DNA of 64,000 nt from assembly GCA_018818205.1 (NCBI GenBank), contig JAHISJ010000013.1:16661-80660 (forward strand). The letters run 5' to 3'. Within the stretch, counting starts at the first letter, position 1, and every line of letters starts with the position of its first letter. The position numbers and the translations under genes were made by a program. Source of the stretch: Patescibacteria group bacterium (GTDB lineage Bacteria > Patescibacteriota > JABMPQ01 > JAHIRA01). Under the pieces are notes generated by a model. It made no database searches and was not told the DNA's origin. It saw only the letters and a program-made list of their open reading frames with translations. Of the stretch, positions 10,961-46,513 are shown piece after piece.

Positions 10961-10968
10961 GGGAAAAC

Positions 10969-12451: not shown

Positions 12452-12487
12452 TCGTGCGCTGTTAACGTGATGGTAAGATAATATACT

Positions 12488-13360: not shown

Positions 13361-13384
13361 ATAATAACGATTAAGTCAACAACT

Positions 13385-22229: not shown

Positions 22230-23231
<1,002 letters not shown>

Positions 23232-23276
23232 GGGGAATTTGACAAATAGAGCCCATAAAGATTACAATTCAGAGCT

Positions 23277-28119: not shown

Positions 28120-28120
28120 T

Positions 28121-28852: not shown

Positions 28853-28903
28853 TTAAGTTTTGGAATTGATATTTACTTTAATTACAAAGTTAGTGGTTTA
28901 TAG

Positions 28904-31900
28904 ATGAGAAAAGTGAAAACACCTCATTTCGACATGTATCTTTTACCAGGGTTTGAGAGCTATTATTGTGACGATTTTGAACCTCTTTCTGTTTCCATTT
29001 TTAATTCTATAATAAAAAATGGAAATGTTGTTGTTGATGTTGGAGCCCACTTTGGTTATTTTACTTTACTTGCTTCAAAAAAGACTGATCGAGTTTATGC
29101 TATTGAGCCAGTAAAGAAAAATAATGAGGTTTTAAGGCAGAATATTGTACTTAATAACTCTCAAGCAATCGTATTTGATTGTGCAATTTCTGATCGTTTA
29201 GGAAAGAAAAAAATAAATGTAGCTACTTCTTCTGACTGCTCAGGTTTTTATGTGCATCCATTCTCTAAGCCGATTGATCAAGAATTGGTTTCAGTAAAGA
29301 CCCTTGACGATCTTTTCCATAATAAACGTATAGACTTGCTTAAAGTTGATACTGAAGGGAATGAATATAAGGTTCTTATGGGAATGGAAAGTGTATTGCT
29401 GCAAAATTCAAATCTTAAGCTGTTATTTGAGTTTAACCCCAAATGTTTAATATGTGCTGGAGACAAGCCTAGTGTTTTTTTAGAAACACTTAAACAACAT
29501 AATTATTCAATCTTTTTTATAGATGACAAAAGTCAAAAGATTGAAAATTATACGCAGTCTCCTGCTAGATGGTCTGAGATGATAGATGAAGATGCGTGTG
29601 TTAATTTGCTTTGCGTTCGCACAAGTGATCCAGATTACAACAATGTACTTTGCACAATTGATACTATAAAAAGAAAAATAGAAACTGCAAAAACTAGGGC
29701 TCGTAGTATTAGGTTTACTATTGGCATTACTGTATACAATAGAAAAGAGTACTTGGAAGAATGCGTTGAAAGTGCATTATCTCAGACGTATAAACCAGAT
29801 GAAATTATTATTGTTGATGACTTTTCACAAGATAAGGGCGTGATTGATATTCTTGAGAAATATAGGAATCGAGAAAATATCAAACTTATTTATAATAAAG
29901 AGAATTTAGGCATTGCTGGATCTTGGAATACAGTGCTAGATAATATGAGTAGTGAATGGTTGGTCATGCTAGATGGTGATGATGTTCTTGAAAAAAATGC
30001 TCTTGAAGAGATAACAAAGTATATTGCGCTTCACAATGAAATCGAATTTATTTCAACCTTGCATACAATTATTAATAGTAAAGGAGAAACACTCGGGGTT
30101 TTTGATAGGCCCCTAGGTAAAGATCCAAAGAAGTTGATTTTAGAGGGAATGTATTTGTCACATCTTAAAGTTTTTAATAAAATGTGCTTTGAAAAAGTGG
30201 GGAGCTTCAGAGGCAAGATAGCAGTTGACTATGACATGGTAGTAAGGGTTCTGGAAATGTGCAAGATGGGCATGCTTCATAAGTGTTTGTACAAATATCG
30301 TTTTCATGAAGATTCGTGTACCAAGAAAAGAGCTAAAGAACAATATGAAAAAGGATGCAAGATTCTATTGGGCACTTACAAAAGGCAAATGATCGATGAA
30401 AATCTCTATATAGACTCTATCATTGAGCGAGGGGCCCTGGCCCATTCCACAAATCTCGGATTACAGAGTAAAATTACACAGAATATTTACCGTATAAAGG
30501 AATTAACTAGCAAGATTGTACAGGAAACAGCTGAAAAAGAAAGAATAGATGTACTTTATAACAAGGAAGCAAAAAGTCATTCTACAGATCTAAATTCATT
30601 GGAATGGAGACTTGGGTGGTGTATTTGCAATCCGTTGAAAGCAGCAAAAAAAATACCTGTATTCGTTGATTATGTGTATGCTAAACGTAAAAAAGACATT
30701 ATCTGGGCAAAAAATAATCCAATTAGGTGTTGTAAAAAATATTTGAAAGTGCTTGTTTCTAAGGGAAAAACATGTGAAGAAGATTTAGAAAGAAGTATCT
30801 ATGATTCACTTACGTATACCGAAATAAATATTGATAAGTGGTCAGAAGATACGCCGCTTATCAGTGTGATTATCCCTTGCTATAATTATGGAAATTATAT
30901 TAGCGAAGCTTTAAATTCTATTTTTGCACAAACACTTCAAGATTTTGAGGTAATTATTATTGATGATGGGTCAACAGATCCTGGAACAGAGAAGGAGTTA
31001 AAAACGATAAAGCATCCTAAGGTCCAGGTTATTTTTCAAGAGAATTCCGGAGTCTCTAATGCTAGAAACAAGGGAATTAGTAAAGCAAAAGGAAAATATA
31101 TTTGTTGTCTAGATCCGGACGACATTCTTGATCCGACCTATTTTGAAAAATGTTTATTGGTTCTGGAAAGAGATGCACAATTAGGCCTTGCATATTCATG
31201 GGTAAAGGAAATTGGGGCTAGGGATATTTTATGGAAGACTACTGATTTGGATATTGACACATTACTTTCATCAAATCATGTACCAATAAGTGCGATTTTC
31301 AGAAAAGAAATAGCTGATAGCGTGTTCTTTGATCCAGATATTCGTCATGAAGACTGGGATTTTTGGCTTTCCGTTGTGGGAAAAGGGTGGCGTGGAAAAG
31401 TAATTCCCGAAGTTCTTATGTATAGCAAGAGACATGGAAACAATAAATCGTTACAAGATGAGCAATTTTATAAAGAAACACTATTAGCACTGAAAGAAAA
31501 GCATAAAAACCTTTTGAAGAAAGATTTCAGAGAAAAAGTGAAAGAGGAGTACATAAAAAAAATAGCGTTAAATCCTTTTACGAATTTAAATAGATCCGTC
31601 TATCAAGAAAAACACAAGAAAAGAGTGTTTGTTGTTGTTCCATTTTTAATATGTGGAGGAGCGGAGACACTTCTTTATAATTTTGCATCAAAGCTTAAGA
31701 ATGAAGTCGATTTTACTTTTATTTCCGTGATTAAGTCAAAAAATGAATGGGAAGACAGGTTTAAGGGAATTAGCTCTCGAGTGTATCATTTACCCAAACT
31801 TTTTGAAAGTAAAAATGTTTGTGATGATTTTTTACTCAATTATATTCAGACAAGAAATATTGATGTATTGCATTTCTTTCACTGTGGTTATTTTTATGAC

Positions 31901-32725
31901 ATACTTCCGATAATTGGCAGAAAATTTTCTTCATTAAAGATAGTTGTAACCCTGTTTAATTCATATGTTGACCACTTTGTTGATGCTACCAAGTATCATG
32001 AGAATGTAAGTATGTATACCTCAGATAATCAAGCTACCATTTCTACGTTTAAGAAACTCGGGGTTTCTGAAGAAAAGTTGCAGCTTTTGCCAAACGCAAT
32101 TGATCCTTTTGAAACGTATAATCCTGCAACTATCGATAGAGAAAATGAAAGAAAAAAGATTGGAGTAAAGGAAAATGAAATAGCCGTCTTTTTTATTGGA
32201 CGCTTATCAGAAGAGAAAAATCCGGATGTATTTTTGAAGATTGCAAGGCAGGTAGTGGCAAAAAAGAAGAATGTAAAATTTTTCGTTGTGGGTGATGGTA
32301 ACATGAAGAAAGAAATCATGCGGATGATTAAGCGGATTGGTAGTGCTAACATCACCTATCTAGGATATAGAAGTGATATCCCAAATTTGCTTACCGCAGC
32401 GGATATTTTTGTTCTACCTTCTAGGATTGAAGGATTTCCCTCATCTATGCTCGAGGCTATGGCAACAGAAAACTGTGTTATTGCTTCAGACGTTGGTGCT
32501 GTAGGAGATGTGATAGAGGACGGAAAGACAGGATTTGTGGTAAATAAAAAGGATTACAGGCGTTTTGTTGAGAGAATCCTTCAACTGGTTGATTCAAGAG
32601 AGACAATTGTTAACATGGGGAGAAAGGCACGAGAGGTTGTTGTACAAAACTATACTACTGAAAAATTAGCCAACAATTATAGAAAACTATACTCAAATGA
32701 AGAAAGTTCTCGTTTTGGGGAGTAG
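28904..32725 (+). CDS. four-domain glycan synthase: FkbM-family methyltransferase + GT2 + GT2 + GT4
   Basis: VVDVGAHFGYFT...LLKVDTEGNE (FkbM); TIGITVYNRKEYLEECVES...IIVDD (GT2); VIIPCYNYGNYISEALNS...IIIDDGS (GT2); RLSEEKNP...PSRIEGFPSSMLEAMA (GT4). Confidence 0.8.
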   Translation: MRKVKTPHFDMYLLPGFESYYCDDFEPLSVSIFNSIIKNGNVVVDVGAHFGYFTLLASKKTDRVYAIEPVKKNNEVLRQNIVLNNSQAIVFDCAISDRLGKKKINVATSSDCSGFYVHPFSKPIDQELVSVKTLDDLFHNKRIDLLKVDTEGNEYKVLMGMESVLLQNSNLKLLFEFNPKCLICAGDKPSVFLETLKQHNYSIFFIDDKSQKIENYTQSPARWSEMIDEDACVNLLCVRTSDPDYNNVLCTIDTIKRKIETAKTRARSIRFTIGITVYNRKEYLEECVESALSQTYKPDEIIIVDDFSQDKGVIDILEKYRNRENIKLIYNKENLGIAGSWNTVLDNMSSEWLVMLDGDDVLEKNALEEITKYIALHNEIEFISTLHTIINSKGETLGVFDRPLGKDPKKLILEGMYLSHLKVFNKMCFEKVGSFRGKIAVDYDMVVRVLEMCKMGMLHKCLYKYRFHEDSCTKKRAKEQYEKGCKILLGTYKRQMIDENLYIDSIIERGALAHSTNLGLQSKITQNIYRIKELTSKIVQETAEKERIDVLYNKEAKSHSTDLNSLEWRLGWCICNPLKAAKKIPVFVDYVYAKRKKDIIWAKNNPIRCCKKYLKVLVSKGKTCEEDLERSIYDSLTYTEINIDKWSEDTPLISVIIPCYNYGNYISEALNSIFAQTLQDFEVIIIDDGSTDPGTEKELKTIKHPKVQVIFQENSGVSNARNKGISKAKGKYICCLDPDDILDPTYFEKCLLVLERDAQLGLAYSWVKEIGARDILWKTTDLDIDTLLSSNHVPISAIFRKEIADSVFFDPDIRHEDWDFWLSVVGKGWRGKVIPEVLMYSKRHGNNKSLQDEQFYKETLLALKEKHKNLLKKDFREKVKEEYIKKIALNPFTNLNRSVYQEKHKKRVFVVVPFLICGGAETLLYNFASKLKNEVDFTFISVIKSKNEWEDRFKGISSRVYHLPKLFESKNVCDDFLLNYIQTRNIDVLHFFHCGYFYDILPIIGRKFSSLKIVVTLFNSYVDHFVDATKYHENVSMYTSDNQATISTFKKLGVSEEKLQLLPNAIDPFETYNPATIDRENERKKIGVKENEIAVFFIGRLSEEKNPDVFLKIARQVVAKKKNVKFFVVGDGNMKKEIMRMIKRIGSANITYLGYRSDIPNLLTAADIFVLPSRIEGFPSSMLEAMATENCVIASDVGAVGDVIEDGKTGFVVNKKDYRRFVERILQLVDSRETIVNMGRKAREVVVQNYTTEKLANNYRKLYSNEESSRFGE

Positions 32726-33584
32726 AGGATTCATTGGAAGAGCGGTCACCAGTTACTTGCAAAATAAAGAAGTGTTTGTGGTAACTGCAGATAGATCTGA
32801 CACCACGTGTGATTTTACTGTAGATTTAAAGAATAAAGATGATGTTCTTGATCTTGTAAGAAAAACGTTACCAAGTTATATTATTAATTGCGCGGGAATT
32901 TTAACTGCTGAGCATTGTTTTCTAAACCCTGTTTTTAGCATGAATGTTCTTAGTGCTCTAGAGGTATTTAAGAGTCAAATAACCTGTAAACTTATCGTCT
33001 TAGGATCTGCGTCAGAGTATGGAATAGTTGGTAAGCTTCCGGTATCTGAAGATGCTCCGTTGATGCCCCAGAACGCATATGACATGAGTAAGGTTATTGA
33101 AACATTGAGTGCACTAAAATATGCAGAGCTCCATGGTCTTAATGTCGTAATTGCACGGCTTTTTAATCCAATTGGTGCTTTAATGCACGAGCGAACACTC
33201 ATTCCAAGTCTTATTAGACAGGTGAAAGAATTAGCACGTAGCAGTCAAAAAAAGCTAGAGGTCAATAGGCTTGATTCTAAAAGGGATTTTTTGGCGGTTT
33301 CTGATGTAGCAGAAGCTATTGCCACAATTGCCCTATCGGAAGAGAATAAAGAGAAGGTATATAACATTGGCTCTGGGGAAGAGGCAAGCGTGGAGCAACT
33401 GATTCAGTCGTTTCTTGAAACTGTTAATTTTTCTCGGAATATAGAAATCGTTGAGACTAGTGAACAACCCGAGCCTCAATATGCATCTAGGGCGGATATT
33501 AGTAGAATTTCAACAGAGTTTGGCTGGAAACCTAAGAATAATTTAAGGGAAGTTGTTAACGAGCTGGTTAATGAGCAAGAATGA
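32697..33584 (+). CDS. NAD(P)-dependent sugar-nucleotide 4-reductase, Rmd-like (GDP-4-keto-6-deoxy-D-mannose reductase candidate)
   Basis: VLVLGSRGFIGRAV, YDMSK, RLFNPIG...RDFLAVSDVAEAI; architecture parallels Rmd; gmd is in the same window. Confidence 0.55.
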   Translation: MKKVLVLGSRGFIGRAVTSYLQNKEVFVVTADRSDTTCDFTVDLKNKDDVLDLVRKTLPSYIINCAGILTAEHCFLNPVFSMNVLSALEVFKSQITCKLIVLGSASEYGIVGKLPVSEDAPLMPQNAYDMSKVIETLSALKYAELHGLNVVIARLFNPIGALMHERTLIPSLIRQVKELARSSQKKLEVNRLDSKRDFLAVSDVAEAIATIALSEENKEKVYNIGSGEEASVEQLIQSFLETVNFSRNIEIVETSEQPEPQYASRADISRISTEFGWKPKNNLREVVNELVNEQE

Positions 33585-34342
33585 AGAATAAAATAAAGAT
33601 AATTATTGTAGGAGCAGGGGAGGCTGGTTCTCTTATTTCAAAGAATATTTATGATGATAAAAACTCTCCTTTTGAACTTGTAGGCTTTGTTGATGATGAT
33701 TTGAAGAAGAAAGAAAAAAAGATTAATGGGAAAAAGGTTTTGGGGGAGCTTAAAAATCTGAAAGAATTAATTGATGAGTTTTCAATAAAAGAATTGCTTA
33801 TAGCTATGCCCTCCGGACGCGGTGATGTCATTCGGAAGGTTCTGGATTGCACTAAAGATAGGCGGGTTCGGTATAAAATAATTCCCAGAAGTACCAAGGT
33901 GTTGATACAGGACTTTGGCGAGAGCTATCTTAAACATATCCGAGATGTATCGGTTGAAGATTTGCTTGGAGGTGAGATTGTAAAATCTGAACTTAAGGTA
34001 ATTGGAAAATATCTCAAGAATAAATGCATATTGATAACCGGTGCGGCAGGGTCAATTGGCTCTGAGCTTGCACGGCAAGTTGCCGCTTTTAGCAATGCTA
34101 AAAAGGTTATTTTGTTTGATTGGTCAGAAAACGGTATGTTCTTGTTGCAAAATGATATTCAGGGGAGCTATCCGAACCATCCCGTTGAGTTTGTTATTGG
34201 TGATATTAAAGATAAACAAAGATTGAATTATATTTTTGACACTTTTTCTCCTGATCTTGTGTTTCATGCTGCAGTGTATAAGCACGTACCTTTAATCTCT
34301 CCAGGGGTTCTATCCCCCGCCGCTTGCGGCGTGATATACTAG
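33581..34342 (+). pseudogene. 5' fragment of a CapD/PglF/WbpM-like NDP-sugar 4,6-dehydratase, truncated at the IS200 left end
   Basis: ILITGAAGSIGSELARQV...FHAAVYKHVPL, then the reading frame runs into the IS left end and stops; about half the expected length. Confidence 0.6.
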
Positions 34343-34825
34343 AGCTATGAGCACATATGTACATAAAAGTCATAATGTAAGCGTGTTACTGTATCACCTG
34401 GTATTTCCTGCAAAGTATCGTCGTGTGGTTATCGATGCACAGGTAGATGAAATTATCAAAGAAACATGCTTGGAAATTGCACAGAGGTACGAAGTACATT
34501 TCCTTGAAATAGGTACAGACAAGAACCACATACATCTGTTGGTACAAAGTGTTCCCACATACACGGTGACCAAACTTGTTACGATGATAAAAAATATTAC
34601 AGCCAGACACGTTTTCAACCAATGTCCCGATGTGAAAAAACAACTTTGGGGTGGAGAATTCTGGTCAGACGGATACTTTGCAAGTACGGTAAGTAAACAC
34701 GGAAATGAAGATATGATATCAAATTATGTAAAAAAGCAGAGAGAAGAGTACACAAAGCTACACAATAATCATCAACTTCGGTTATTCTAGCGGATACCCC
34801 GTCCGCTTGCGGCGGGGTAGTTTAT
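34300..34825 (+). mobile_element. IS200/IS605-family insertion sequence (tnpA only) with subterminal hairpins at both ends
   Basis: Left-end hairpin ccgccgcttgcggcg (about 34317-34331). Right-end hairpin ccccgtccgcttgcggcgggg (34797-34817). Y1 transposase gene between them. Confidence 0.75.
34347..34790 (+). CDS. tnpA: IS200/IS605 family transposase TnpA (HUH Y1)
   Basis: HUH motif HIHLLV, catalytic Tyr in SDGYFASTV; 147 aa. Confidence 0.85.
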   Translation: MSTYVHKSHNVSVLLYHLVFPAKYRRVVIDAQVDEIIKETCLEIAQRYEVHFLEIGTDKNHIHLLVQSVPTYTVTKLVTMIKNITARHVFNQCPDVKKQLWGGEFWSDGYFASTVSKHGNEDMISNYVKKQREEYTKLHNNHQLRLF

Positions 34826-34882
34826 TCTACATATAGGCCAGAATTTAACTATCTGACAATATCCAAATGGAATGAACGTGAA

Positions 34883-35467
34883 TTGGAAAATCATGGCTAT
34901 AGCTCAACTATTGCTTCTCCTGGAATAAACCAGGAAGTTTATAAATGTTATGATGACGTAGGAAGAAGAGATGATTTACTTCTTTCTGTTGGCTGGTCAC
35001 ATTACTTAAAGAATTTAGATTATCTTTTAGATGGGTGGAGAGGAATGAAAACCAAGCCGAAATTAGAGCTTTTTAGAATTGAGCCTCGTCTAGGTAAGAA
35101 GAATGGTGTAAAGTATTATTACAAACCAAATGATATTCAAGTGGCACGCTTGTATAACAGGGCAACCGTTTTTGCTCAAACTTCGCTTCATGAAGGGTTT
35201 TGTTTACCGATTCTTGAGGCTATGGCATGTGGATGTCCAGTTGTTTGTACGGATGCAGATGGCAATTTGGATTTTTGTGTTGATGGTAAGAATTGTTTAA
35301 TAGTTGCAAAAGATGATGTTAATGCTTTAACTGGTGCTCTTGAATCTTTGCTTAGAGATGAAGGCTTGAGAGAGAGACTTTCTCGAGAAGGGAAGAGAAC
35401 GGCTGAGAAATATGTGTGGGATATGCAAAATACTTTACTTGAAGCGTTTATGTATGATCTCAAATAG
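34883..35467 (+). pseudogene. 3' fragment of a GT4 glycosyltransferase (C-terminal half only), fused in frame to the IS right end
   Basis: [19 protein letters not shown] (EX7E) present but the N-terminal Rossmann half is absent. The open frame extends upstream into the IS right-end hairpin. Confidence 0.6.
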
Positions 35468-35514: not shown

Positions 35515-36492
35515 ATGGAGATAGTAAAGAAAAAAACACTTATTTCAGTAGTCATTCCTGTATATGGCTGTTATTCATGCTTAGAAGAGCTTTGCAATAG
35601 GATCAATAAAGTTTTTAAGCTTAAAATGCCAGACACTGAATATGAAGTTCTGCTCGTCAATGATGCTAGCCCAGATGAATCTTGGAAAAAAATTGAGGAA
35701 TTGGCTAAAATAGATAAACGTATTATGGGGATAAGTTTATCAAGGAATTTTGGACAGCATAGAGCAATCACAGCAGGTCTTGACTTTTCAGGTGGGGATT
35801 GGGTTGTTGTGATGGATTGTGACTTACAGGACCCTCCTGAAGAGATTGCAAGACTTTACAATGAAGCTCTTATGGGCTATGACATAGTGATGGGGAGGAG
35901 AAGTGTTCGGATAGATTCGTTTTTCAAAAAGGTATCATCAAAGCTTTTTCATTTGATTCATAATTGGCTGTCTGGTACAAAAACTGATCCAGATGTTGCA
36001 AATTTTTGTATTTGCTCGAGAAAAGTGGTTAATGCTATTAAGAAAATTCGAGAGCAAAGCAGATTTTTCCCAAGTTTACTACAATGGGTTGGATTCAAGA
36101 AAACATACATAGATATAAACCATGCGAAGAGAAGAGAAGGAAAGTCGTCGTATAGTTTGAGAAAGTTGATTAGCTTAGCCATTGAAGATATTGTTGCATT
36201 TTCTAATAAGCCTCTCAAAATGGCAGTCTATTTTGGTTTCTTTGTTTCTCTTTTTTCTTTCTCTTATGCGTTTTATTTAGTCGTAAGGTATATATTTTTT
36301 AGCTTTTCTGTTGAGGGTTGGACAAGCGTTATTGTTTCGATATGGCTTGCGACTGGTTTAATCATTATGATTGCTGGTATTGTTGGAATTTATGTTAGTA
36401 GAATCTTTGATGAGGTTAAAGGGAGGCCCATTTATATAGTTAAAGATACTACTGAAAATAGAACAATAGAGCGTGATTTACTTGTTGAATAA
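35515..36492 (+). CDS. GT2 polyprenol-phosphate aminosugar/hexose transferase (ArnC/GtrB-like) with two C-terminal TM helices
   Basis: ISVVIPVYG...LLVNDASPDES...GQHRAITAGL...VVMDCDLQDPPEEI. Confidence 0.75.
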   Translation: MEIVKKKTLISVVIPVYGCYSCLEELCNRINKVFKLKMPDTEYEVLLVNDASPDESWKKIEELAKIDKRIMGISLSRNFGQHRAITAGLDFSGGDWVVVMDCDLQDPPEEIARLYNEALMGYDIVMGRRSVRIDSFFKKVSSKLFHLIHNWLSGTKTDPDVANFCICSRKVVNAIKKIREQSRFFPSLLQWVGFKKTYIDINHAKRREGKSSYSLRKLISLAIEDIVAFSNKPLKMAVYFGFFVSLFSFSYAFYLVVRYIFFSFSVEGWTSVIVSIWLATGLIIMIAGIVGIYVSRIFDEVKGRPIYIVKDTTENRTIERDLLVE

Positions 36493-36591
36493 AAGTTTAC
36501 TAATTTCTATATTATAATAAATTTGTGTATATGGTAGAGTTTATTGCATGATTATCCATTCTGTTAGTTAACAATACGATTTGTATCAGAA

Positions 36592-36963
36592 ATGAACGCT
36601 ATATTATTTATCATTCTTACAATAATTTTCACGGTTTCAAGTCAGCTTCTCTTAAAATGGAGAGTTACAGCTATAATTGAGGAACATGGGCTATTAGAAA
36701 GTAAAGTTAGTATTATCTCTAAAACATTATTGGACCCATTAGCTCTTTTAGCTTTGTTTTTTGCCTTTGTTGCATCATTGTCTTGGATATTAGCACTTTC
36801 GAAAAAAATTGAACTAAGTATTGCTTATCCTTTAACAAGCATGAGTTTTGTATTAGTCTTTATATTTTCGATAGCTGTCTTTAACGAGTCTTTTAGTATA
36901 TTTAAGGTTATTGGTCTTCTCATAATCATAACAGGGGTAGTTTTTTTAAGTTTTAGTTTATGA
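36592..36963 (+). CDS. small 4-TM DMT/SMR-like protein, ArnE/ArnF-like lipid-linked sugar flippase subunit candidate
   Basis: C-terminal IAYPLTSMSFVLVFIFSIAVFNESFSIFKVIGLLIIITGVVFL aligns with the ArnE IAYPMLSLNFVWV...GGIVIL region. Confidence 0.6.
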   Translation: MNAILFIILTIIFTVSSQLLLKWRVTAIIEEHGLLESKVSIISKTLLDPLALLALFFAFVASLSWILALSKKIELSIAYPLTSMSFVLVFIFSIAVFNESFSIFKVIGLLIIITGVVFLSFSL

Positions 36964-37415
36964 TAGTTTTCCCAAAGTGCTTAATGAAAATAGAAACTGA
37001 TAAAAAGTGTGAACACATTTTATTTCGAGATGGCGTATATTATTTTGATAAAGATAAGTCCAAAGATTATCTAGAAGCGTTTGATCCTCGTTCATTTAAG
37101 GCTCTTTGTAACGCTGAAACGACACATTTTTGGTTTCAACAGAGAAAAAAATAAGAGCGAATATTTTTGTAGAGTATATTCCTAAGGAAAGTTCTGTACT
37201 TGAAATAGGTGCAGGAACAGGTATCATTACAAAAGAAATAAGAAATCCTGGATACTATTTCAGCAGCAGATATACATGGAGAGTCGCTTAAGCTCTAAAA
37301 CAAGTTAAAATAGGAAAAATCTCTAATACAATGTTAAATATTGTTACAAAAGCAGAAGAAGGGTTGACTCGATTTAAGCTGCCATTCGGAAGTAGCATAT
37401 TAATTATTGCCCAAA
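36960..37415 (+). pseudogene. degraded class I SAM-dependent methyltransferase (frameshift in an A7 run plus internal loss)
   Basis: ...THFWFQQRKK then a frame change at agagaaaaaaataag, continuing ...EYIPKESSVLEIGAGTGIITKEI (motif I) followed by a stop. A separate C-terminal remnant ends at 37415. Confidence 0.5.
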
Positions 37416-37419
37416 AAAA

Positions 37420-38568
37420 ATGATTCCTTTCAATATTCCTACTTTTTTAGGTAAAGAAAAAAGTTATCTATTAGATGCTATTGATAAATTAAAGCTTTGT
37501 GGCGATGGTTCTTACACAAAGAAGTGTCAAGAGCTAATGGAAAAAAAATTTCATTGTAAAAAGGTTTTACTGACAACTTCTTGCTCTCATGCTTTGGATA
37601 TGTCAGCTATCCTTATTGATGTAAAGGAGGGCGATGAAGTTATAATGCCTTCGTACACCTTTGTTTCAACTGCAAATGCTTTTGTGTTAAGGGGCGCTAA
37701 AGTTGTGTTTGTTGACATTCGGCCCGATACTATGAATATTGATGAAAACCTAATAGAAGAGGCAATTACAGAAAAGACTAAGGCTATTGTAGTTGTTCAC
37801 TATGCAGGGGTAGGTTGTGAAATGGACACAATTATTGATATTGGAAAAAAATATAATTTGAAAGTGATTGAAGACGCTGCTCAAGGAGTAAATGCAAAAT
37901 ACAATGGGAAGTATTTAGGAACAATAGGAGACATTGGGTGTTATAGTTTCCACGAGACTAAGAATTATACTTGTGGAGAAGGTGGAGCTCTTTTGCTTAA
38001 TGATGAGCAAATGATTGAAAGGGCTGAGATTATTAGAGAAAAAGGTACTAATAGAGCGAAGTTTTTTAGAGGGCAGGTTGATAAATACTCATGGGTTGAT
38101 ATAGGTTCATCTTTTTTGCCTAGTGAGTTGAATGCAGCTTATCTCTTGGCACAATTGGAAGATATCGAAAAAGTAAACGAACGTCGATTATCTATTTGGA
38201 ATATGTATCGTAAGAAACTCAATTTACTTGATCAAAATATTCACATTGAATTCCCATTCATTCCTAGCTCCTGCAAGCAAAATGGACACATGTTTTATAT
38301 TAAGGTTAAAGATTTAACTGAAAGACAGAATTTAATAGATTTTTTAAAAAATAGAGACATAATGACTGTTTTTCATTATATTCCTTTACATTCTTCTAAA
38401 GCAGGGAAAAAAAATGGAAGATTTTTTGGGAAGGAAATTTATACTACTAAGGAGAGCGAGAAACTGTTGCGTTTGCCGATGTTTTATAGTCTATGCGAAG
38501 AAGATATTGATTATGTCTCAAGTGAAATAATAAATTATTATAAGCAAAATGATCTTTCAATATCTTAA
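37420..38568 (+). CDS. wecE: DegT/DnrJ/EryC1-family PLP aminotransferase, dTDP-4-keto-6-deoxyhexose 4-transaminase (WecE-like)
   Basis: MIPFNIPTF...KLCGDGSYTKKCQELMEKKF...EVIMPSYTFVSTANAFVLRGAKVVFVDIRPDTMNIDE...SFHETKNYTCGEGGALLLND closely parallels E. coli WecE. Confidence 0.75.
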   Translation: MIPFNIPTFLGKEKSYLLDAIDKLKLCGDGSYTKKCQELMEKKFHCKKVLLTTSCSHALDMSAILIDVKEGDEVIMPSYTFVSTANAFVLRGAKVVFVDIRPDTMNIDENLIEEAITEKTKAIVVVHYAGVGCEMDTIIDIGKKYNLKVIEDAAQGVNAKYNGKYLGTIGDIGCYSFHETKNYTCGEGGALLLNDEQMIERAEIIREKGTNRAKFFRGQVDKYSWVDIGSSFLPSELNAAYLLAQLEDIEKVNERRLSIWNMYRKKLNLLDQNIHIEFPFIPSSCKQNGHMFYIKVKDLTERQNLIDFLKNRDIMTVFHYIPLHSSKAGKKNGRFFGKEIYTTKESEKLLRLPMFYSLCEEDIDYVSSEIINYYKQNDLSIS

Positions 38569-40015
38569 ATTAAATAAAAGTGAATTTAAGTATTTCTTGT
38601 ATGCTTTCTTAGCCTCACTTTTGGCAAGGGGCGTAGTATTGTTTAATCTTTCTTACGCGATAGATGATTACTCATATATGTTTACCCATATTACTTTGGA
38701 TAGAAATTGTATATCTTTTGGTAGGTGGGGGCTTGGTATTGTTAATGATTTTTTCTTTTATTTAGGAATTGAGGGTCCATACGCTTTTCCTTTTGTTGCT
38801 ATATTATCTTTTCTAACTTTGGCTTATGTTAGTGTTTTAATATGTAGAATGTGGGACGTGAAGGGGTTTTGGGCTTGTATATTGGTTTCACTTTTTTTCA
38901 TTCTCCATCCATATCAGTCTGAAATTTATACCTTTAGGATAGCATCAATTTCCTTTTTCGTTGCGCTTTTGTTTGCATTTACCTCTTTTTATTTAGCGGG
39001 AGTTTTAAAAAGAAGGCTATTGTTCTTACCGATAATGCTATTTGTTTTTTCTTTGAGCGTATACCAAATAGTATTGAATTACGTTTTTGTAGTATATTTT
39101 TTCTCTTTAATAGTCTTCTTACTCTTTAAACAAAATGAGAGGAGGAATAGAGAGTCTTTATTCTCGCAATTTATTTTGCTTATAGGGGGTACTTTTGTCT
39201 ACTTCATAGTAAATAAGCTAATTTTATACTTAACTCAGATAGAAACTCCTAAGCGTGCAGAATTTGTGACTTTCGATCAAATTCCTGATCGAGTGAAAGA
39301 AATTTCCTTGTTGGTTTTTGGGATGTTTTATCAAGCTGAAAGTATTCTACCTTTTTTGACAAAAATATTATTACTTTTATTTCTTTTACTCTTTATTTTT
39401 TCTGTCTCTATTTTTTTACTAAAAAAGAAATTGTATTTAAAATTAGCACTTTTTATTTTTGTTTTCATTTTGGCTTATTTTTCAACAATAGGCGTCAATA
39501 TGATGAATGGTGTTTGGTGGCCAGCTCCTAGGGTTCTGGCTAGTGTCGGTATTTTCTGGGGAGGCATTTTGGCAATTACATATAAGCTTAAAATGAAACT
39601 AATTTTGAAGATTTCCTTGACTCTTTCAATAGTAGTTTTATTTAGTTTTGTAGGAGTCAACAATAAAGTTTTTGTTGATCAAATACGTATTAACAAGTTC
39701 GATTTTAGTTCAGCAATAAGAATTACTAGTTTACTTGAAAAACAGCCTAATTTTTCACCTTCTATGCCATTGTACATAGATGGGCGTATACAATATACTT
39801 ATTTACCAGTTACTATGATGTATGACATGAATGTATCTGCTTTATTACAGCCTTGGTCAAAAGTTTCTCTTCTTAATGAATCCGTTGGGTATAGTTTTTT
39901 ACAACCAAATCCAATGCAGGTTGATATAGGTAGAAAGGCATGTGAAGACGCTGCAAAATGGCCTAGCGAGAAATCTGTCTTTGTTGTTGAAGGGGTAGGT
40001 GTTGTTTGTCTATAA
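38549..40015 (+). CDS. polytopic membrane protein, GT-C-fold glycosyltransferase candidate (ArnT/GtrII-like role)
   Basis: About 12 TM helices; acidic first-loop motif YAIDDYSYM about 40 aa from the N-terminus. Follows the polyprenol-P GT2 / flippase-like / aminotransferase genes. Confidence 0.5.
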   Translation: MIFQYLKLNKSEFKYFLYAFLASLLARGVVLFNLSYAIDDYSYMFTHITLDRNCISFGRWGLGIVNDFFFYLGIEGPYAFPFVAILSFLTLAYVSVLICRMWDVKGFWACILVSLFFILHPYQSEIYTFRIASISFFVALLFAFTSFYLAGVLKRRLLFLPIMLFVFSLSVYQIVLNYVFVVYFFSLIVFLLFKQNERRNRESLFSQFILLIGGTFVYFIVNKLILYLTQIETPKRAEFVTFDQIPDRVKEISLLVFGMFYQAESILPFLTKILLLLFLLLFIFSVSIFLLKKKLYLKLALFIFVFILAYFSTIGVNMMNGVWWPAPRVLASVGIFWGGILAITYKLKMKLILKISLTLSIVVLFSFVGVNNKVFVDQIRINKFDFSSAIRITSLLEKQPNFSPSMPLYIDGRIQYTYLPVTMMYDMNVSALLQPWSKVSLLNESVGYSFLQPNPMQVDIGRKACEDAAKWPSEKSVFVVEGVGVVCL

Positions 40016-40055
40016 AAAAAGAACGCATAAGGCTGCGTTCATAAATAATTAAGAT

Positions 40056-41936
40056 TTACTTTGCTTGAAGTGAGTATGCAATGCTAATTTCCTTATCACT
40101 TAATGCTCTGCTAATGTAAGCAATCTTTGCATAGCGAGCTTTCATGTGATAATCGGTATAGACTCCTGTTAGAGGGTTCCAAGAAATGAACATGTACGAG
40201 GAAGAGGTAGCTGCACTACATGTAATATTGGTGGATGTTCCATCAAGTTTGCCATCAATGTAGAACTTTACGGTCGATGCTGCCTTGTTGTATACATATG
40301 TAAGGTGCACATATTTGTTGATTACAAGCGAGGTTTTTGGGCTTCTATCCATACCTGTCCCACAGTACCCAACATATTTGTTTGCCCAATGACTAAGGCT
40401 TAGTGATGTTCCAGGTGATCTAATAATAAATGACGCACCATAGCTAGGAGTTGTTGTTATTTGTGCATAAACCATGACAGTGAAGGATTCAACAGAAGTT
40501 GTCTGAAGTGTTCCTACATTTGTGATAACAGCATATCCTTTGATAGAGGTATCAAAATATGTTTTGGCCCCAAGGGTCACTACACGGCCACCGTTTTTGA
40601 TTCCCGCGTGCCTTCCTTTACCGGAGACATCTGGAATTTTGATGTTGTCGTTTTTTTGTGGTACTAACAAGAATTCGAGGGCAGAGCAATTAGATTCATC
40701 TGTTTGACCATCGCAGTTATCGTCGATGTTGTTGCTACAGACTTCAACACCGTAACTACCGCCGCAACATCTACCATGCAGGCATAGCTGTCCCAACGTA
40801 CACTGTGTGCCGCATTTTCCACAGTTATTCTTGTCTACTTGGAGGTTAAACCCATTATCAACAACTCCATCACAATCATTATCCTTCCCATCACAGATCT
40901 CTTTTGAGGAGGGCATAGGTGTACAGGTCTGAGCTACGCCACCAACACATTTCTGAACCGTATTGGAGCACTCTCCAACACCACATGCTAACGTTCCAAG
41001 ATTCTCATCAATTTGGCCGTTGCAGTTGTTGTCTTTGCCATCGCAGACTTCCGTAGAAGGCTGTTTTGGCACACAACTTTGCGGTTTTCCGCTTGAGCAG
41101 TTGTTAACTTCAACAAAGCACTCTCCAACACCACAAGAACTTTTCCCTAAATCTTCATCAATCGCACCATCACAGTCGTTATCAAGACCGTCACAAGTCT
41201 CAGGCTTTGGTTCAACGAGGCCTATACAAGGTCCCCATGATCCATCAGATAAGCACGTTTGCCTTCCTCTCTTACAAAGTCCTTTAAGCGGTACTGTTCC
41301 ACAATCTAGGGTATTTCCTGCTGTACAACAAGGGATACCATCATCAATCTGACCGTTGCAGTCGTTGTCAAGTCTGTCGCAGGTCTCCTTAGCAGGTTGA
41401 TTCTTTTGAATGCAAATTAGTTTACCGGATGCACAAGTATATGAACCTTCAGTACAAATTCCCGGTTTTCCTGTTACACAAGGCTTACCAAATAATTTCT
41501 TGTATTTATCACAGGGATCAATTTTTTCAGATTCAGGGAGAATCTCTGGAGAAACCTTTTCTTCAGATGATGTAGATTCTTCGTGAACAAAACGTTCTTC
41601 TTGAATGGTGCGTTCAGGTTCCCGAGGGATTTCCTCAGGAAGTTCTCCTGCATCATTTAACTCAGCAGTGTATTCATCAATACGCTGTTCATTAATATCT
41701 TCACCAAATTCATGATCAATTAACTGTTCTTTTGTGTCAACAAGAATTTTTTCTTTGTCACCACCTGTTTCAATTTTATCTTTGGGGATACAATATTCAC
41801 CACTTCGGCAGTAATGGTTTGCTGGGCAATCACTATCAACGTCACATTCGAGCATACCTGAGGGGTTTGAACAATTCAGTGTAAAAATAGCAGAAAAAAG
41901 AAAAATTACATACAAAAACTTCGGCATTTTTGTCAT
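40056..41936 (-). CDS. secreted Cys/Asp-rich repeat protein (MopE-type putative metal-binding repeats) with acidic linker and C-terminal LamG/concanavalin-like domain
   Basis: Start set at ATG 41936 with AGGAGG SD. Signal peptide MTKMPKFLYVIFLFSAIFTLNCS. At least 5 repeats ending CDGxDNDCDGxxD. C-terminal jelly-roll-like region. Confidence 0.7.
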   Translation of the reverse strand: MTKMPKFLYVIFLFSAIFTLNCSNPSGMLECDVDSDCPANHYCRSGEYCIPKDKIETGGDKEKILVDTKEQLIDHEFGEDINEQRIDEYTAELNDAGELPEEIPREPERTIQEERFVHEESTSSEEKVSPEILPESEKIDPCDKYKKLFGKPCVTGKPGICTEGSYTCASGKLICIQKNQPAKETCDRLDNDCNGQIDDGIPCCTAGNTLDCGTVPLKGLCKRGRQTCLSDGSWGPCIGLVEPKPETCDGLDNDCDGAIDEDLGKSSCGVGECFVEVNNCSSGKPQSCVPKQPSTEVCDGKDNNCNGQIDENLGTLACGVGECSNTVQKCVGGVAQTCTPMPSSKEICDGKDNDCDGVVDNGFNLQVDKNNCGKCGTQCTLGQLCLHGRCCGGSYGVEVCSNNIDDNCDGQTDESNCSALEFLLVPQKNDNIKIPDVSGKGRHAGIKNGGRVVTLGAKTYFDTSIKGYAVITNVGTLQTTSVESFTVMVYAQITTTPSYGASFIIRSPGTSLSLSHWANKYVGYCGTGMDRSPKTSLVINKYVHLTYVYNKAASTVKFYIDGKLDGTSTNITCSAATSSSYMFISWNPLTGVYTDYHMKARYAKIAYISRALSDKEISIAYSLQAK

Positions 41937-41981
41937 AATCTCCTCCTCTTGAGGTGTAAAAGGGTTCAAAGTTTGCGCTTT

Positions 41982-42010
41982 ATTATGGAACGTTTTGCCG
42001 AAAAAAGCAA
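41982..42010 (-). promoter_or_regulatory. candidate promoter TTGCTT-17-CATAAT for the 40056-41936 gene
   Basis: Reverse-complement inspection; about 45 nt upstream of the start codon. Confidence 0.35.
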
Positions 42011-42047
42011 GTCCTTTTGGTAATGTGCACACACATATGGCGGTTTT

Positions 42048-42076
42048 TTGACAGGGTCCAGGAAGTTGAATACAAT
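42048..42076 (+). promoter_or_regulatory. sigma70-consensus promoter TTGACA-17-TACAAT, about 380 nt upstream of the 42456 gene
   Basis: ttgaca 42048-42053; tacaat 42071-42076. Confidence 0.45.
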
Positions 42077-42455
42077 CTCTACTAATGTACAAGAAGAGCA
42101 CTATCGATGGATAGCACTCATTATGGTGGAAAAGATATCCATAGCATTGATTGCAGGGATTTCTCCTTTCCCTGATAGAACCATTAGGTATTGGCTTCCT
42201 CGGTTGGCATTGTAAACCTTGTAAGTATGTCTAGAAGACCAAAATCATATTCTTGTGAAACACTAATATGTGTCCAAAATTATCAAGGAGAAGAGAATAA
42301 GATGAAAAACTGCTAATTTTTTTTATCAAATAGATTGTTTTACATGATTATTTCTAAGGCACTGGAGTTTAAGCCCATAACGTTATCTATTTGAACGGAT
42401 GCGTATATCTGCTATTCTTGATTTATTAGTAGTAAAAATTTTGTCAGTGAAAAAA

Positions 42456-45400
42456 ATGAAGAGAGTTGGAAAAGTAAAAAAAGTTGTCATATTTTTTGTT
42501 TTAATGGCGATCTGTACGCTTATCTTGTTACCAAGTCTTATTTCTTTGTCAGAGAATGAAATTTTTGGTGTAGAAGGTGACGCCTATCAAGTATACTCTA
42601 CAACCTTTTACAAAGATGCAATAAAAGGAGATTCAATTTTTGAAAAGATTTTTGGTTATAAAAAAGGCATTGATGTTCCTCTTGACTTACTCAGTTTACA
42701 CACATATCGATATATGTCATTTAAGCTTATAGGTAATCCTCTTGGCTTTAATCTAGTGTGGATCGCTTCTTTCTATTTAACTATCGTTGCTGGTTATCTT
42801 CTTATTAAAGTTTTTACCAAATCAGATTTAGCGGCAATAATTGGCGGGACATTAATAACTTTTGTCCCAACACATTTTGCATTTGGTTTGGGTTTTGGAG
42901 GTGCGACGCATATTGAATTTATTGTTTTTTTTCTGTATTTTTTCTTTTCTTTTTTTCAAAAACCAAAAATTTGGAAATTTATTGGAACTCTTGTAAGTTT
43001 AGCCATAATGGTGGCCAACGAACATCATTTTGCATTTTTTTCAATTATTTTTGTCCTAGTATATCTGTGTTATCTATGCATAGCAAAGAGAGATATTTTA
43101 AAAAAAGTTGCAACAACGAACTATGTAATAGCTTCTTGCATATTTTTCTTGGTTAGTTGTATCTATTTAGTCATATTCTATATCAATTTAGATAAAGTAG
43201 CTGAATTACAACTAGGAATAGAGGAAACAGTAAGCCGGTCCGTTGATGTTCTTGGCTTTTTTGTTCCTTACCAATTTCATCCTATTTGGGGAGATTTCTT
43301 TTCTAGAGGGATAACAAGTAAATTTATCACTCCCGTTTCGGAAACGACAGCGTATCTTGGGTTTGTATCGATTTTTTTGATTATAATCTTTTTTGTGAAA
43401 AGCAAAAAGAAATTTGATTATAATCAAAAAGCCTTATTCTTGATTGGCTTTATTTTTTTATGCATAGCCTTAGGGCCGTTATTACATCTAAATGGCTTAT
43501 TTAACCCTCAAATTCGACTTCCATATTATCTGGTGTACTCATTTTTACCAATATTTTCATCAATGAGAGCTGTCGGAAGAGCGGTAATTTACTTAGAAAT
43601 TATAGCTTTTATTTTTGCATCAACTGGTTTTGCTTTACTTATTAAAAAAAAGTCAATCAAGAAACAGTTTTTTTATGCCGGAGCAGTAATTATTCTTATC
43701 GCTATAGAATTTCTAGCTATCTCTCCGACAGTTTCCACAAACTATCCCGATTTCTATAACAAGATTGCCAACGAAGAAGGTAATTTCAAAATATTGCAAA
43801 TTCTAAACTCAACTAGTTATGCATATGCTTCAAGGGCGCTCTATTTCAATTCTCATCATAATAAAACAGCTGTTGGTGGATACACTTTTGCACGCCCGGT
43901 ACCGGGTATGTTTCAAATGGAGACTGGCACCCCGGTAATCGAGGACTTACTCTATCGAATACCGAAAGGTGAAGGTATTGACCCCTCGTTGGTATATGAT
44001 CCAAAAGAAGTATCAAATCTCGTTCTTAATTACAATAATATTAAATATATTGTGCAAGAAAAAGAATATATTTCAAACAAGAATGTTGGTCCAGAGCATC
44101 AATTGACGCCCGAAAAGTTTTCAGAAATAAAAGAGTATATAACTTCAAATATTAAAGGTGAGGTTGTGCAAGATGACAATGAAATATATGTTTTTAAGGT
44201 TAAAGAAATAAATAATCAAGATATGTTTGTTTCAAGAGGAATAGGCTTTAAAGAAGTTCCAGAAAAACATACTACTAAGCTTTATAAAGAAGATGGCTAT
44301 TTTTACGTTAATAATCCTTCTGATCACGTCCGGAAGGGATATTTGACTTTTAAGGCTTCTGCACGGGGTGAAAGTAGGAAACTATCGGTGTCATTTAACG
44401 AGAATGATTTTCAAGATGTTGAACTGGGGAAAACAGAAAATATCTTTTCTCTCGAGCTCGGTAACATTTTACCGGGACAAAATCGAGTGAAATTTATTTC
44501 TCCTAGTTACAATGAATCTGAGATCGAATTGTCTGATTTTATAATTTTTGAAGATCTTGTCAATAATCATGGTTTACTATCCAATCAATCAATCAATGAT
44601 ACTCTTGAGTTTCCACCTACTATTAGGAGTAAAGAAGGAAGTAATCAGTATCCAAAATCCCTTTTAAACAGCGATTGTATTTCAAGTGGTGTCGCATGTT
44701 CACTGTTGCCGAAAAATTTTTCAGAAAAAAAAGGGATTCTTTCAGATTTCCAGTATGGAGTTAATTATGCAAAATTTTTACAAAACAAAGGTATAAATCG
44801 TATTGTAATTCATAAAGATCGTTTAACATTACAGGATCTTTTTTACGCTCAATATTTTTTCACTTTCCATTTGAAAAATTATGAGTTGATTAATGAAGAC
44901 AACAATACATTACTTTACGTGAAAGATGTAGATGCTCCTTCACTTGATACTAGTGTTTTTGTAGATTTTTCTGAGAGTTTAGAGGGAAGTGAATCAAAAA
45001 GTTTGTTAGATCACCGTAAGCTTTTGGATACTAATTCATTGATTCGTTTGAGTTCAGAAAAACAAATAGCTGGAAATTTGAATGTTGATTTATTCCTTGA
45101 CACAATTAGCACTAAAAAGTATCAAATTGAAGTAGCAGATGAACAGGGCAAGATTTTAGAGAACGTGCTAATTGAGCCGAATAAACCAATAAATTTGAGT
45201 TTTGCCGTGAATAGTTCAGAGCTTATTAGGTTCAATATTTTAGAGGAAGATAGATCTCCAGTAGAAACTGTTCCGCCGGTATATATTTCTAACATGTGGT
45301 TTGATGATTCTGAGGGAATATATAACTACTTTGATAGTAAAACGTTGGAGGATAACAAGTATAATGATCTCGTGGCTTTTAAAAACTTTGCAGGCGATAT

Positions 45401-45845: not shown

Positions 45846-46513
45846 AGGAAAAAGTTTGTCTAGTAATCCCTGCTTATAATGAAGTAGGATCTCTTGAAGG
45901 AGTCGTAAAGGAGGCGTCTCGCTATTCTGATACAATAATTGTCGTAGATGACGGTTCACGTGATAAAACAGGGGATTTTTGTATAGAAAAAAATGAAAAG
46001 GACGTATATTTTCTTAGACATGTTGTCAATTTAGGTAAAGGGGCTGCCATGAGGACGGGAGCTATTTTTGCACAAAACCTCAAGTGTGATTTTTTGGTCT
46101 TTATGGATGCCGATGGACAACATGATCCTCAAGACATCAAAAAGTTGGTGGATTGTGTAAAAGAGAAAAAAGGACTGGCCATTGGTAAGCGTGAAAAAAA
46201 TAAAAATATGCCCTTAGCTATGAAAGTAGGGAATTTTTCACTTTCTTTACTGATAAAGACTCTTTTTAAACTTTCAGTTGAAGATACACAGTCGGGTTTT
46301 AGAGCAATAAGATTAGAGGATTTGGATAAGATTCTCTGGACTAGTTGTGATTATAATGTAGAAACGGAAATGCTTATCAAAGCTAAAAAGAATCAAATAT
46401 CGATATTTGAGGTTCCAATAAAAACAGTATATAATGATAAATATAAGGGAACGACATTTATTGATGGAATTAAAATTTTTTTACAACTTTTAAAACTTAG
46501 ATTTTATGATTAA
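45842..46513 (+). CDS. GT2 polyprenol-phosphate glycosyltransferase, soluble DPM1-like short form
   Basis: VCLVIPAYNE...VVDDGSRDKT...GKGAAMRTG...MDADGQHDPQDI. Confidence 0.8.
   Translation: MKEKVCLVIPAYNEVGSLEGVVKEASRYSDTIIVVDDGSRDKTGDFCIEKNEKDVYFLRHVVNLGKGAAMRTGAIFAQNLKCDFLVFMDADGQHDPQDIKKLVDCVKEKKGLAIGKREKNKNMPLAMKVGNFSLSLLIKTLFKLSVEDTQSGFRAIRLEDLDKILWTSCDYNVETEMLIKAKKNQISIFEVPIKTVYNDKYKGTTFIDGIKIFLQLLKLRFYD

Follow-up and report, generated by a model that had tools for sequence, protein, structure and literature searches.

Here, we describe a predicted glycosylation module in a 64,000-nucleotide stretch of contig JAHISJ010000013.1 from a Patescibacteria group bacterium, referred to below as the window. 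The module spans positions 35515-40015 and consists of four intact genes and one decayed gene, all co-directional, which encode a family 2 glycosyltransferase (GT2), a 123-residue membrane protein, the remnant of a methyltransferase, a WecE-type aminotransferase, and a 488-residue membrane protein with a GT-C fold (Table 1). We consider it likely that these genes constitute a three-component (Gtr-type, "multi-component transmembrane") glycosylation system that carries its own sugar-synthesis step. The identities of the genes, their folds, and their synteny are established by the analyses below, and from these we infer the identity of the donor, the flipping step, the acceptor, and the acylation state of the sugar. 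The original prediction, made from the letters of the window alone, had placed the four genes and the decayed methyltransferase at these positions, and gene calls together with Pfam and NCBIfam comparisons bore this out. The Pfam scan took in all open reading frames (ORFs) of at least 110 residues in the window, and transmembrane (TM) segments were counted by a simple hydropathy scan.

Composition of the module

The aminotransferase scored 629 bits against the WecE equivalog NF008687 (cut-off 375), with residues 1-374 covered, and 626 bits against TIGR02379 (cut-off 435). Its alignment with Escherichia coli WecE (4PIW) gave 522.7 bits and 62% identity across 375 columns, and in the same structure comparison QdtB (172 bits) and ArnB (156 bits) were far below WecE. 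A UDP-sugar transaminase of the ArnB, PglE, or PseC type was rejected, with ∼200 to 210 bits versus 629 bits for WecE, in agreement with the original assignment of the enzyme to the dTDP-sugar (WecE) rather than the ArnB/PglE type. The pyridoxal phosphate-binding lysine, Lys181 in the motif SFHETKNY, is kept. Judged by its sequence, the protein is a true WecE orthologue and its most likely product, by orthology, is dTDP-4-amino-4,6-dideoxygalactose (dTDP-Fuc4N, the galacto form), with the reservation that TIGR02379 scores almost as high as NF008687, which leaves galacto versus gluco stereochemistry undecided at this level. The supply route that had been proposed for this enzyme is also present, as RmlA, RmlB, and RmlD are encoded upstream with scores above their cut-offs; RmlA and RmlB would together provide dTDP-4-keto-6-deoxyglucose, the substrate of WecE.

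The GT2 matches Pfam Glycos_transf_2 with 98 bits, and among the NCBIfam models PgfS (231 bits) and then ArnC (196 bits, cut-off 529) score highest, each under its cut-off. Full-length comparison with PDB structures gave 217 bits for GtrB and 167 bits for ArnC, the two TM helices lie at residues 238-256 and 272-290, and 29 homologues share its DCDLQD motif and are invariant with it at 73 alignment columns. The protein is thus a membrane-anchored GT-A GT2, as found in three-component systems, and its predicted product is a polyprenyl-P-4-amino(acylamino)-4,6-dideoxyhexose. The 123-residue protein that follows has approximately four TM segments. Its best matches are ArnF (52.6 bits, cut-off 99) and ArnE (29.7 bits, cut-off 92), followed by SMR efflux proteins and a weak Pfam match to EamA, and it is 51% identical to its counterpart in the nearest relative cassette (locus L005, see below) and 45% identical to that of Bacillus mesophilus (locus L008). 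This protein is our candidate for flipping the lipid-linked sugar. It would then occupy the place of the small multi-TM protein (GtrA- or SMR/EmrE-type) of three-component systems, for which a flippase activity is likewise putative.

The 488-residue protein matches Pfam GtrII (PF14264) with 82.9 bits (cut-off 30), and an AlphaFold2 model built from 74 family members has a GT-C fold (pLDDT 96.2, pTM 0.94), as the original prediction anticipated. A GT-C gene therefore stands alongside the GT2 and the small membrane protein, and it is of the GtrII rather than the PMT_2/ArnT type. We rejected the idea that this protein is an orphan; a word-indexed search returned three proteins only, whereas an exhaustive search returned a GtrII-type family of 543 clusters at 50% identity. 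Within this family, Asp39 is invariant just past TM1, and the window protein keeps Asp39, Arg59, Pro121, and Arg328. Two near-invariant cysteines in its C-terminal domain fit with an extracytoplasmic location. The protein is predicted to move the sugar from the lipid carrier onto an envelope glycan.

The WecE and GT-C genes overlap by 20 nt, and the overlap is conserved in L005, where it is 23 nt. Downstream of the module, a hairpin at 40021-40040 lies between convergent genes. Scans of the window for promoters and terminators performed no better than shuffles, except for this hairpin and one that follows the IS200 transposase gene, and no tRNAs were found in the window.

Conservation of the cassette across phyla

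The GT2 has 7997 homologous matches at E < 1e-20, with thousands at 50 to 59% identity. When one genome per species was scanned with the GT2 alignment, at least 600 matches were obtained, of which the best 80 by similarity, and not a random sample, are counted here. Their GT2s, at 47 to 55% identity, come from Bacillota, Bacteroidota, Pseudomonadota, Campylobacterota, Desulfobacterota, Planctomycetota, Chloroflexota, Acidobacteriota, Nitrospirota, Verrucomicrobiota, Fibrobacterota, and Spirochaetota. A WecE-type gene (40 to 64% identical) is located within 10 kb of the GT2 gene in 67 of the 80 loci, and several of the 13 WecE-free loci are short contig fragments. Where a GT2 ORF could be called (76 loci), WecE is within 6 kb in 57, a WecD-like GNAT is present in 43 (these calls, at 23 to 45% identity, may include non-WecD enzymes), an SMR-like protein in 30, and a polytopic membrane protein in 56. 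The usual compact cassette consists of the GT2, an N-acyltransferase, the SMR-like protein, WecE, and a polytopic membrane protein. The window GT2, which is 47 to 59% identical to the GT2s of such cassettes, likewise has WecE as a neighbor. The block is strongly conserved in other genomes, and the load, flip, and transfer logic that had been proposed for it is supported by this comparison. Taken with the GT-C fold and the WecE type of the aminotransferase, this synteny means that the original prediction withstood each of the three checks named with it.

The closest cassette is that of L005, a Patescibacteria-labelled contig from the same sample with a GT2 that is 59% identical to that of the window. 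It consists of the GT2, a WecD-like GNAT, the SMR-like protein, WecE, a GtrII protein, and an intact methyltransferase; the best family of the GNAT is WecD, with a full-length score of 170.8 bits that is under the cut-off of 219. This cassette (1482-6824 and 9569-10366) lies outside a glycan locus, ∼2.7 kb from the gene for BacA, an undecaprenyl-pyrophosphate phosphatase. In B. mesophilus, the order is RmlA, RmlB, GT2, GNAT, SMR-like protein, WecE, and an adjoining 557-residue polytopic protein. More generally, Bacillaceae carry a self-contained RmlA-RmlB-GT2-GNAT-SMR-WecE-DUF6044 cassette, in which RmlA and RmlB connect the GT2 with a dTDP-derived sugar.

In loci without a GNAT, the genes between GT2 and WecE code for different N-modifying enzymes, namely formyltransferases (in the cassettes of three loci), WbqC, ATP-grasp proteins, hexapeptide transferases, and methyltransferases. 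The Saccharibacillus deserti locus (L027) was considered as an acyltransferase-free precedent and was rejected, as an AMP-binding ligase, a LuxE-like protein, a LuxC-like protein, and a separate 181-residue GNAT are encoded divergently and directly upstream. L027 is one of a sub-variant (with L021, L028, L034, L048, L059, and L061) in which three proteins of ∼360 to 510 residues are encoded between GT2 and SMR or divergently upstream, and the pooled census of these inserts also includes ATP-grasp domains. The inserts suggest that the sugar may carry unusual N-acyl groups. A related design is found at the locus of the closest GT-C relative in the word search (P0002; L003, 6095-11557), which encodes a DegT aminotransferase, a GT2, a WxcM-like hexapeptide-FdtA fusion, GtrA, and GtrII and is, by analogy, a 3-acetamido-3,6-dideoxyhexose version.

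The last component varies. Partners of the GT-C type per locus are DUF6044 (14 loci), PMT_2 (seven), and GtrII (two), with others unclassified, a pattern like that of serotype-specific Gtr enzymes. When the GtrII proteins of the window and L005 and the 557-residue protein of B. mesophilus were compared by tblastn with the 80 related loci, no match was found. DUF6044 closes the Bacillaceae cassette (L010-L026, e.g., L010 12961-14757) in 14 loci, with a best E value of 2e-235, and this position suggests that DUF6044 is a GT-C-like transferase for a lipid-linked aminosugar.

The phylum-spanning link of the GT2 with WecE and an N-acyltransferase, and with RmlA/RmlB in Bacillaceae, argues that the GT2 would load a dTDP-derived 4-acylamino-4,6-dideoxyhexose onto polyprenyl phosphate, for later use by an extracytoplasmic GT-C protein. 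A pathway can be proposed on this basis. The RmlA and RmlB encoded upstream would generate dTDP-4-keto-6-deoxy-D-glucose, which WecE would aminate at C4 to give a dTDP-4-amino-4,6-dideoxyhexose, likely the Fuc4N form. Between WecE and the GT2, nearly every related cassette would interpose an N-acyltransferase, mostly WecD-like, such that the donor there would be undecaprenyl phosphate (Und-P)-linked Fuc4NAc or another N-acyl derivative. The GtrB/ArnC-type GT2 would move the sugar to polyprenyl (undecaprenyl) phosphate at the cytoplasmic face, and flipping of the lipid-linked sugar would fall to the SMR-like protein with its four TM segments, which probably acts as a homodimer. Lastly, the GtrII-family GT-C protein would transfer the sugar outside the cytoplasmic membrane to a glycan, the likely acceptor being an ABC-exported and probably rhamnose-containing polysaccharide of the monoderm-type host.

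The absent acyltransferase and competing explanations

The N-acylating enzyme of the cassette was not found in the 64-kb window. When the window was searched by tblastn at E ≤ 1, neither the WecD-like GNATs from L005 and L008 nor a hexapeptide transferase from L007 gave a hit, and no hexapeptide, formyl-, or WecD-like transferase was detected by Pfam across the window ORFs. The gap between the GT2 and SMR genes, which is the site of the acyltransferase in relatives, measures 99 bp. On the contig, the 10 kb that precede the window encode mostly proteins without a Pfam match and added nothing recognizable. Either the sugar is acylated by an enzyme encoded elsewhere, or it is transferred as the free amine, or the module is impaired. 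Since nearly all relatives encode an N-acylating enzyme, the usual product of the cassette would, from gene content, be a neutral N-acyl sugar. The original description of the decoration as charge-modifying is therefore not upheld for the family, among whose cassettes only the window lacks such an enzyme.

The second irregularity of the window copy is the methyltransferase. In three-frame translation, the remnant between 36960 and 37420 begins with a 64-residue N-terminal ORF that ends in HFWF, and motif I (VLEIGAGTG, 37196-37222) follows in another frame with a weak match to Methyltransf_23; after motif I, there is a stop and then a C-terminal fragment. The gene is broken by a stop and a frameshift, and an internal part of it is deleted. 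Intact homologs with the same HFWF ... LEIGxGTG order adjoin the SMR gene in L028, L007, L044, L075, and L072, and that of L028 (5771-6595) matches Methyltransf_23 with 68.9 bits. The methyltransferase is a recurrent, optional accessory gene of the cassette. Directly upstream of the module, positions 33581-35467 look like an insertion/deletion scar, composed of a truncated CapD/PglF-like gene, an IS200/IS605 transposase gene followed at 34795-34819 by a hairpin with a 9-bp stem, and the C-terminal fragment of a GT4 gene.

Several points weigh against a functional three-component system as proposed. We found no biochemical data for any member of the cassette. The SMR-like protein is below every curated cut-off and is undetected in most Bacteroidota versions, and flipping by an SMR protein is an assumption. 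Characterized enzymes of the GtrB/ArnC type take UDP-sugars, and it is from the gene neighborhood only that we infer a dTDP donor. Since the GT-C partner varies between loci, the acceptor is not transferable from relatives, and the frequencies given above come from loci selected by similarity. Finally, the IS200 element with its truncated neighbors, the pseudogene, and the missing acyltransferase mean that the module may be impaired in this genome.

The last of these points can be extended to a module that is merely a decaying remnant, in which the loss of the acyltransferase and methyltransferase and the IS200 rearrangement have inactivated the pathway and the remaining ORFs are just not yet degraded. 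The methyltransferase pseudogene, the transposase and truncated CapD-like and GT4 genes immediately upstream, and the missing acyltransferase would all be expected. However, none of the four core ORFs is shortened in comparison with its homologs, the WecE/GT-C overlap is retained, and the methyltransferase is optional in relatives. The four ORFs also keep invariant residues (the DCD motif of the GT2, Lys181 of WecE, and Asp39, Arg59, Pro121, and Arg328 of the GT-C protein), which argues against advanced decay, and we regard this explanation as quite unlikely. Intact ORFs with conserved catalytic motifs would also suit a cationic, Arn-like decoration, in which free-amine Fuc4N or 4-amino-4,6-dideoxyglucose (Qui4N) is loaded onto polyprenyl phosphate and transferred outside to add positive charge, as a monoderm analog of the 4-amino-4-deoxyarabinose (Ara4N) modification of lipid A. 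The short GT2-to-SMR gap and the lack of a WecD-like GNAT, hexapeptide transferase, or formyltransferase in the window speak for it as well. We nevertheless judge it unlikely, because the nearest cassette, L005, has a WecD-like GNAT, essentially all other cassettes (L027 included) have an N-acylating enzyme, and the Arn pathway itself transfers an N-formyl form and needs a deformylase, whereas no deacylase was seen in the window. In addition, the host is without lipid A, and an acyltransferase could be encoded in the remaining ∼19 kb of the contig or in the rest of the genome. That the cassette has lost its N-acetyltransferase and yet functions, with free-amine polyprenyl-P-Fuc4N adding positive charge to the wall polysaccharide of an ultra-small bacterium without LPS, is accordingly a doubtful proposition; if true, it would parallel, in a monoderm, the change of charge brought about by Ara4N and would have evolved, through the loss of a gene, from a widespread cassette for neutral glycosylation with Und-P-Fuc4NAc.

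It could also be argued that the adjacency of WecE to the other three genes is coincidental, with WecE feeding a cytoplasmic glycosyltransferase that makes the main polymer, as for WecF in the enterobacterial common antigen (ECA) pathway, while the GT2/SMR/GT-C trio transfers a common hexose, for example Glc or GlcNAc. The GT2 family is large, its characterized structural relatives use UDP-sugars, and many other glycosyltransferases of the locus could use dTDP-Fuc4N(Ac). Yet WecE is kept beside this GT2 subfamily in 67 of 80 loci from ∼12 phyla, and the Bacillaceae cassettes consist of RmlA, RmlB, GT2, GNAT, SMR, WecE, and a membrane protein only. The other GtrB-type GT2 of the window (23277-24221), which is 31% identical to that of the module, has no WecE neighbor. 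Coincidence is thus highly improbable.

Relation to known systems, likely acceptor, and implications

Three-component glycosylation systems are established (PMC11127046, PMC8035078), and those characterized transfer Glc, Gal, GlcNAc, or pentofuranoses from a UDP-sugar or phosphoribosyl pyrophosphate pool (PMC8035078, PMC11127046). They include GtrA-GtrB-Gtr(type) of Shigella and Salmonella, gmlABC of Klebsiella, GtcA-CsbB/GtlA-YfhO/GtlB of Listeria and Bacillus, GacI/J/K/L of Streptococcus, and ORF12/14/15 of Citrobacter, and an EmrE/ArnE-like presumed flippase is used in the Citrobacter Ribf system (PMC11127046). The module of the window resembles them in that a GT2 with C-terminal TM helices would charge polyprenyl phosphate, a small protein is the presumed flippase, and a GT-C protein would act outside the membrane. 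Its GT-C protein is in the same Pfam family (GtrII) as a serotype-specific Gtr of Shigella, and, as in Klebsiella, Streptococcus, and Xanthomonas, the module is within an ABC-transporter-type polysaccharide locus. Unlike these systems, it carries its own WecE (and, in relatives, WecD and RmlA/RmlB), and its predicted donor is a dTDP-derived 4-amino- or 4-acylamino-4,6-dideoxyhexose.

A close precedent is wxc region 3 of Xanthomonas campestris (wxcK, wxcL, wxcM, wxcN, and wxcO), which adds a Fuc3NAc side branch to a rhamnan O-antigen (PMC13133917). The FucNAc branch of this ABC-transporter-type rhamnan is missing in mutants of wxcK, which encodes the aminotransferase, and likewise in mutants of wxcN, which encodes a small membrane protein (PMC4878081). 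As in the window, a DegT aminotransferase for a dTDP-amino-dideoxyhexose is clustered with a GT2 and a small membrane protein, and L003 resembles wxc region 3 in its Fuc3NAc-type gene set. The sugar of wxc region 3, however, is a 3-amino sugar made via an FdtA-type isomerase, rather than a 4-amino sugar made via WecE, and its product belongs to the lipopolysaccharide (LPS) O-antigen of a diderm, where a lipid-linked intermediate is likewise putative. The Xanthomonas small membrane protein, as described by Vorhölter in 2001, is reportedly GtrA-like rather than SMR-like.

The original comparison with the Arn pathway holds for the order of the steps, in which a 4-aminotransferase acts on a 4-keto nucleotide sugar and a GT2 acting on Und-P, an SMR-like flippase, and a GT-C protein follow; the relatives with a formyltransferase even mimic N-formylation by ArnA. 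It does not hold for the components. The Arn equivalogs score below their cut-offs (ArnB 203 versus 631 bits, ArnC 196 versus 529, ArnF 53 versus 99, and ArnE 30 versus 92), the GT-C protein is GtrII and not ArnT, and ArnA and ArnD are absent from the window, where no formyltransferase or polysaccharide-deacetylase domain was found in the ORFs scanned. Moreover, the predicted donor is a dTDP-hexose and not a UDP-pentose, a single SMR gene takes the place of the two that encode a heterodimer, and the host is not one with lipid A. The dTDP-Fuc4NAc branch of ECA offers another parallel in its WecE, of which the window protein is the orthologue, and in the WecD-like GNAT of the relatives. An ECA cluster was nevertheless rejected; WecD, WecF, WzxE, and WzyE are absent beside the window WecE, which has a GT2/SMR/GT-C context instead. 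In ECA, Fuc4NAc is added cytoplasmically by WecF to the Und-PP-linked lipid II, whereas the module described here is predicted to load its sugar onto Und-P, from which an extracytoplasmic GT-C protein would take it as a monosaccharide.

With regard to the acceptor, all named relatives of the window MetK (70 to 75% identity) are from the candidate phyla radiation (CPR), namely Falkowbacteria, Magasanikbacteria, Vogelbacteria, and Parcubacteria, in agreement with the Patescibacteria label that NCBI gives to the proteins of the contig. To our knowledge, CPR bacteria do not have LPS, and we saw none of the lpx genes in the window. The host being a Patescibacterium, lipid A is not the acceptor. Streptococcal rhamnose polysaccharides and the Xanthomonas rhamnan suggest, by analogy, that the sugar most plausibly goes to the ABC-exported polysaccharide made by this locus. 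The genes of the ABC transporter are immediately followed by that of a 1273-residue protein (28904-32725), which combines an FkbM methyltransferase, two GT2 domains, and one GT4 domain; it resembles chain-terminating or polymerizing enzymes of ABC-transporter-dependent O-antigen systems. The locus also encodes a Wzy_C protein and a Wzx-like flippase.

Table 1 Features of the module and of the surrounding locus (positions in the window)
Feature	Positions	Strand	Details
GT2, polyprenyl-phosphate glycosyltransferase	35515-36492	+	GT-A domain and two C-terminal TM helices, GtrB/ArnC architecture
4-TM SMR/ArnE-F-like membrane protein, 123 aa, candidate flippase	36592-36963	+	
Class I S-adenosylmethionine (SAM) methyltransferase remnant	36960-37419	+	HFWF-type N-terminus and motif I
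WecE-type dTDP-4-keto-6-deoxy-D-glucose 4-aminotransferase	37420-38568	+	
GtrII-family protein, 488 aa, GT-C fold	38549-40015	+	C-terminal extracytoplasmic domain (predicted)
Truncated CapD/PglF-like dehydratase gene	33581-34342		N-terminal 253 aa
IS200/IS605 transposase	34347-34790	+	Pfam Y1_Tnp 124.7 bits, NF033573 127.9 bits
GT4 C-terminal fragment	34883-35467		194 aa
dTDP-sugar supply block (RmlC-like, HIT protein, RmlB, RmlD, RmlA)	10433-14458	+	NCBIfam
RmlC-like gene	10433-10960	+	Weak match
RmlB	11438-12451	+	467 bits, cut-off 365
RmlD	12488-13360	+	314 bits, cut-off 224
RmlA	13385-14458	+	416 bits, cut-off 320
ABC-2 permease, ABC ATPase, 1273-aa multidomain enzyme	27355-32725	+	Pfam

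Other parts of the window contain further glycan-related genes. The second GtrB-type GT2, which also has two C-terminal TM helices, is encoded directly after a GDP-mannose-4,6-dehydratase-like gene (22254-24221) and may make another lipid-linked donor from a GDP-6-deoxyhexose. A candidate for an additional extracytoplasmic glycosylation set is located at 42399-50524 and encodes a 1148-residue DUF6311 membrane protein, a 223-residue soluble GT2 with a small DUF2304 membrane protein immediately after it, two GT4 proteins, and a membrane protein of the DUF6541 family; in their arrangement, the GT2 and DUF2304 genes resemble GacI/GacJ. Convergent with the module, 40056-42101 on the minus strand encodes a secreted-looking protein of 681 residues, in which four Cys-rich repeats of the MopE type (CDGxDNDCDG) are combined with a LamG/ConA-like domain at the C-terminus. 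Also on the minus strand, at 5806-8928 within the glycan locus, lies the gene of a 1040-residue protein that contains FG-GAP repeats together with a domain resembling 3-keto-disaccharide hydrolases. Amid the sugar-nucleotide genes, the segment 14427-16797 encodes a KilA-N domain protein (15991-16797) and a 481-residue protein without a family match and is possibly mobile or phage-derived DNA.

A search of the open-access literature returned no description of Und-P-linked Fuc4NAc, Qui4NAc, or viosamine or of the cassette itself, which is absence of evidence. The original view that the system had not been described thus stands as far as a 4-amino- or 4-acetamido-4,6-dideoxyhexose version is concerned, on which no paper was found, and falls for the three-component mechanism, which is textbook knowledge and has a close precedent in wxc region 3. 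The cassette is widespread and appears to be uncharacterized, and the window holds an atypical, acyltransferase-less copy of it. If the three-component reading is correct, Und-P-Fuc4NAc (or another N-acyl or free-amine form) would be a new lipid-linked donor beyond Glc, Gal, GlcNAc, Ara4N, GalN, GalA, and the pentofuranoses. Functions would follow for a large GT2 subfamily, an SMR-like subfamily, and DUF6044, and the occurrence of 4-amino-6-deoxy sugars as side branches of ABC-transporter-made polymers would be explained. The cassette is present in at least 600 species-level genomes from many phyla, including culturable Bacillaceae, Bacteroidota, and Campylobacterota. For the biology of the CPR, the finding would mean that an organism with a small genome has several separate lipid-linked decoration modules in one surface-glycan locus of more than 60 kb.

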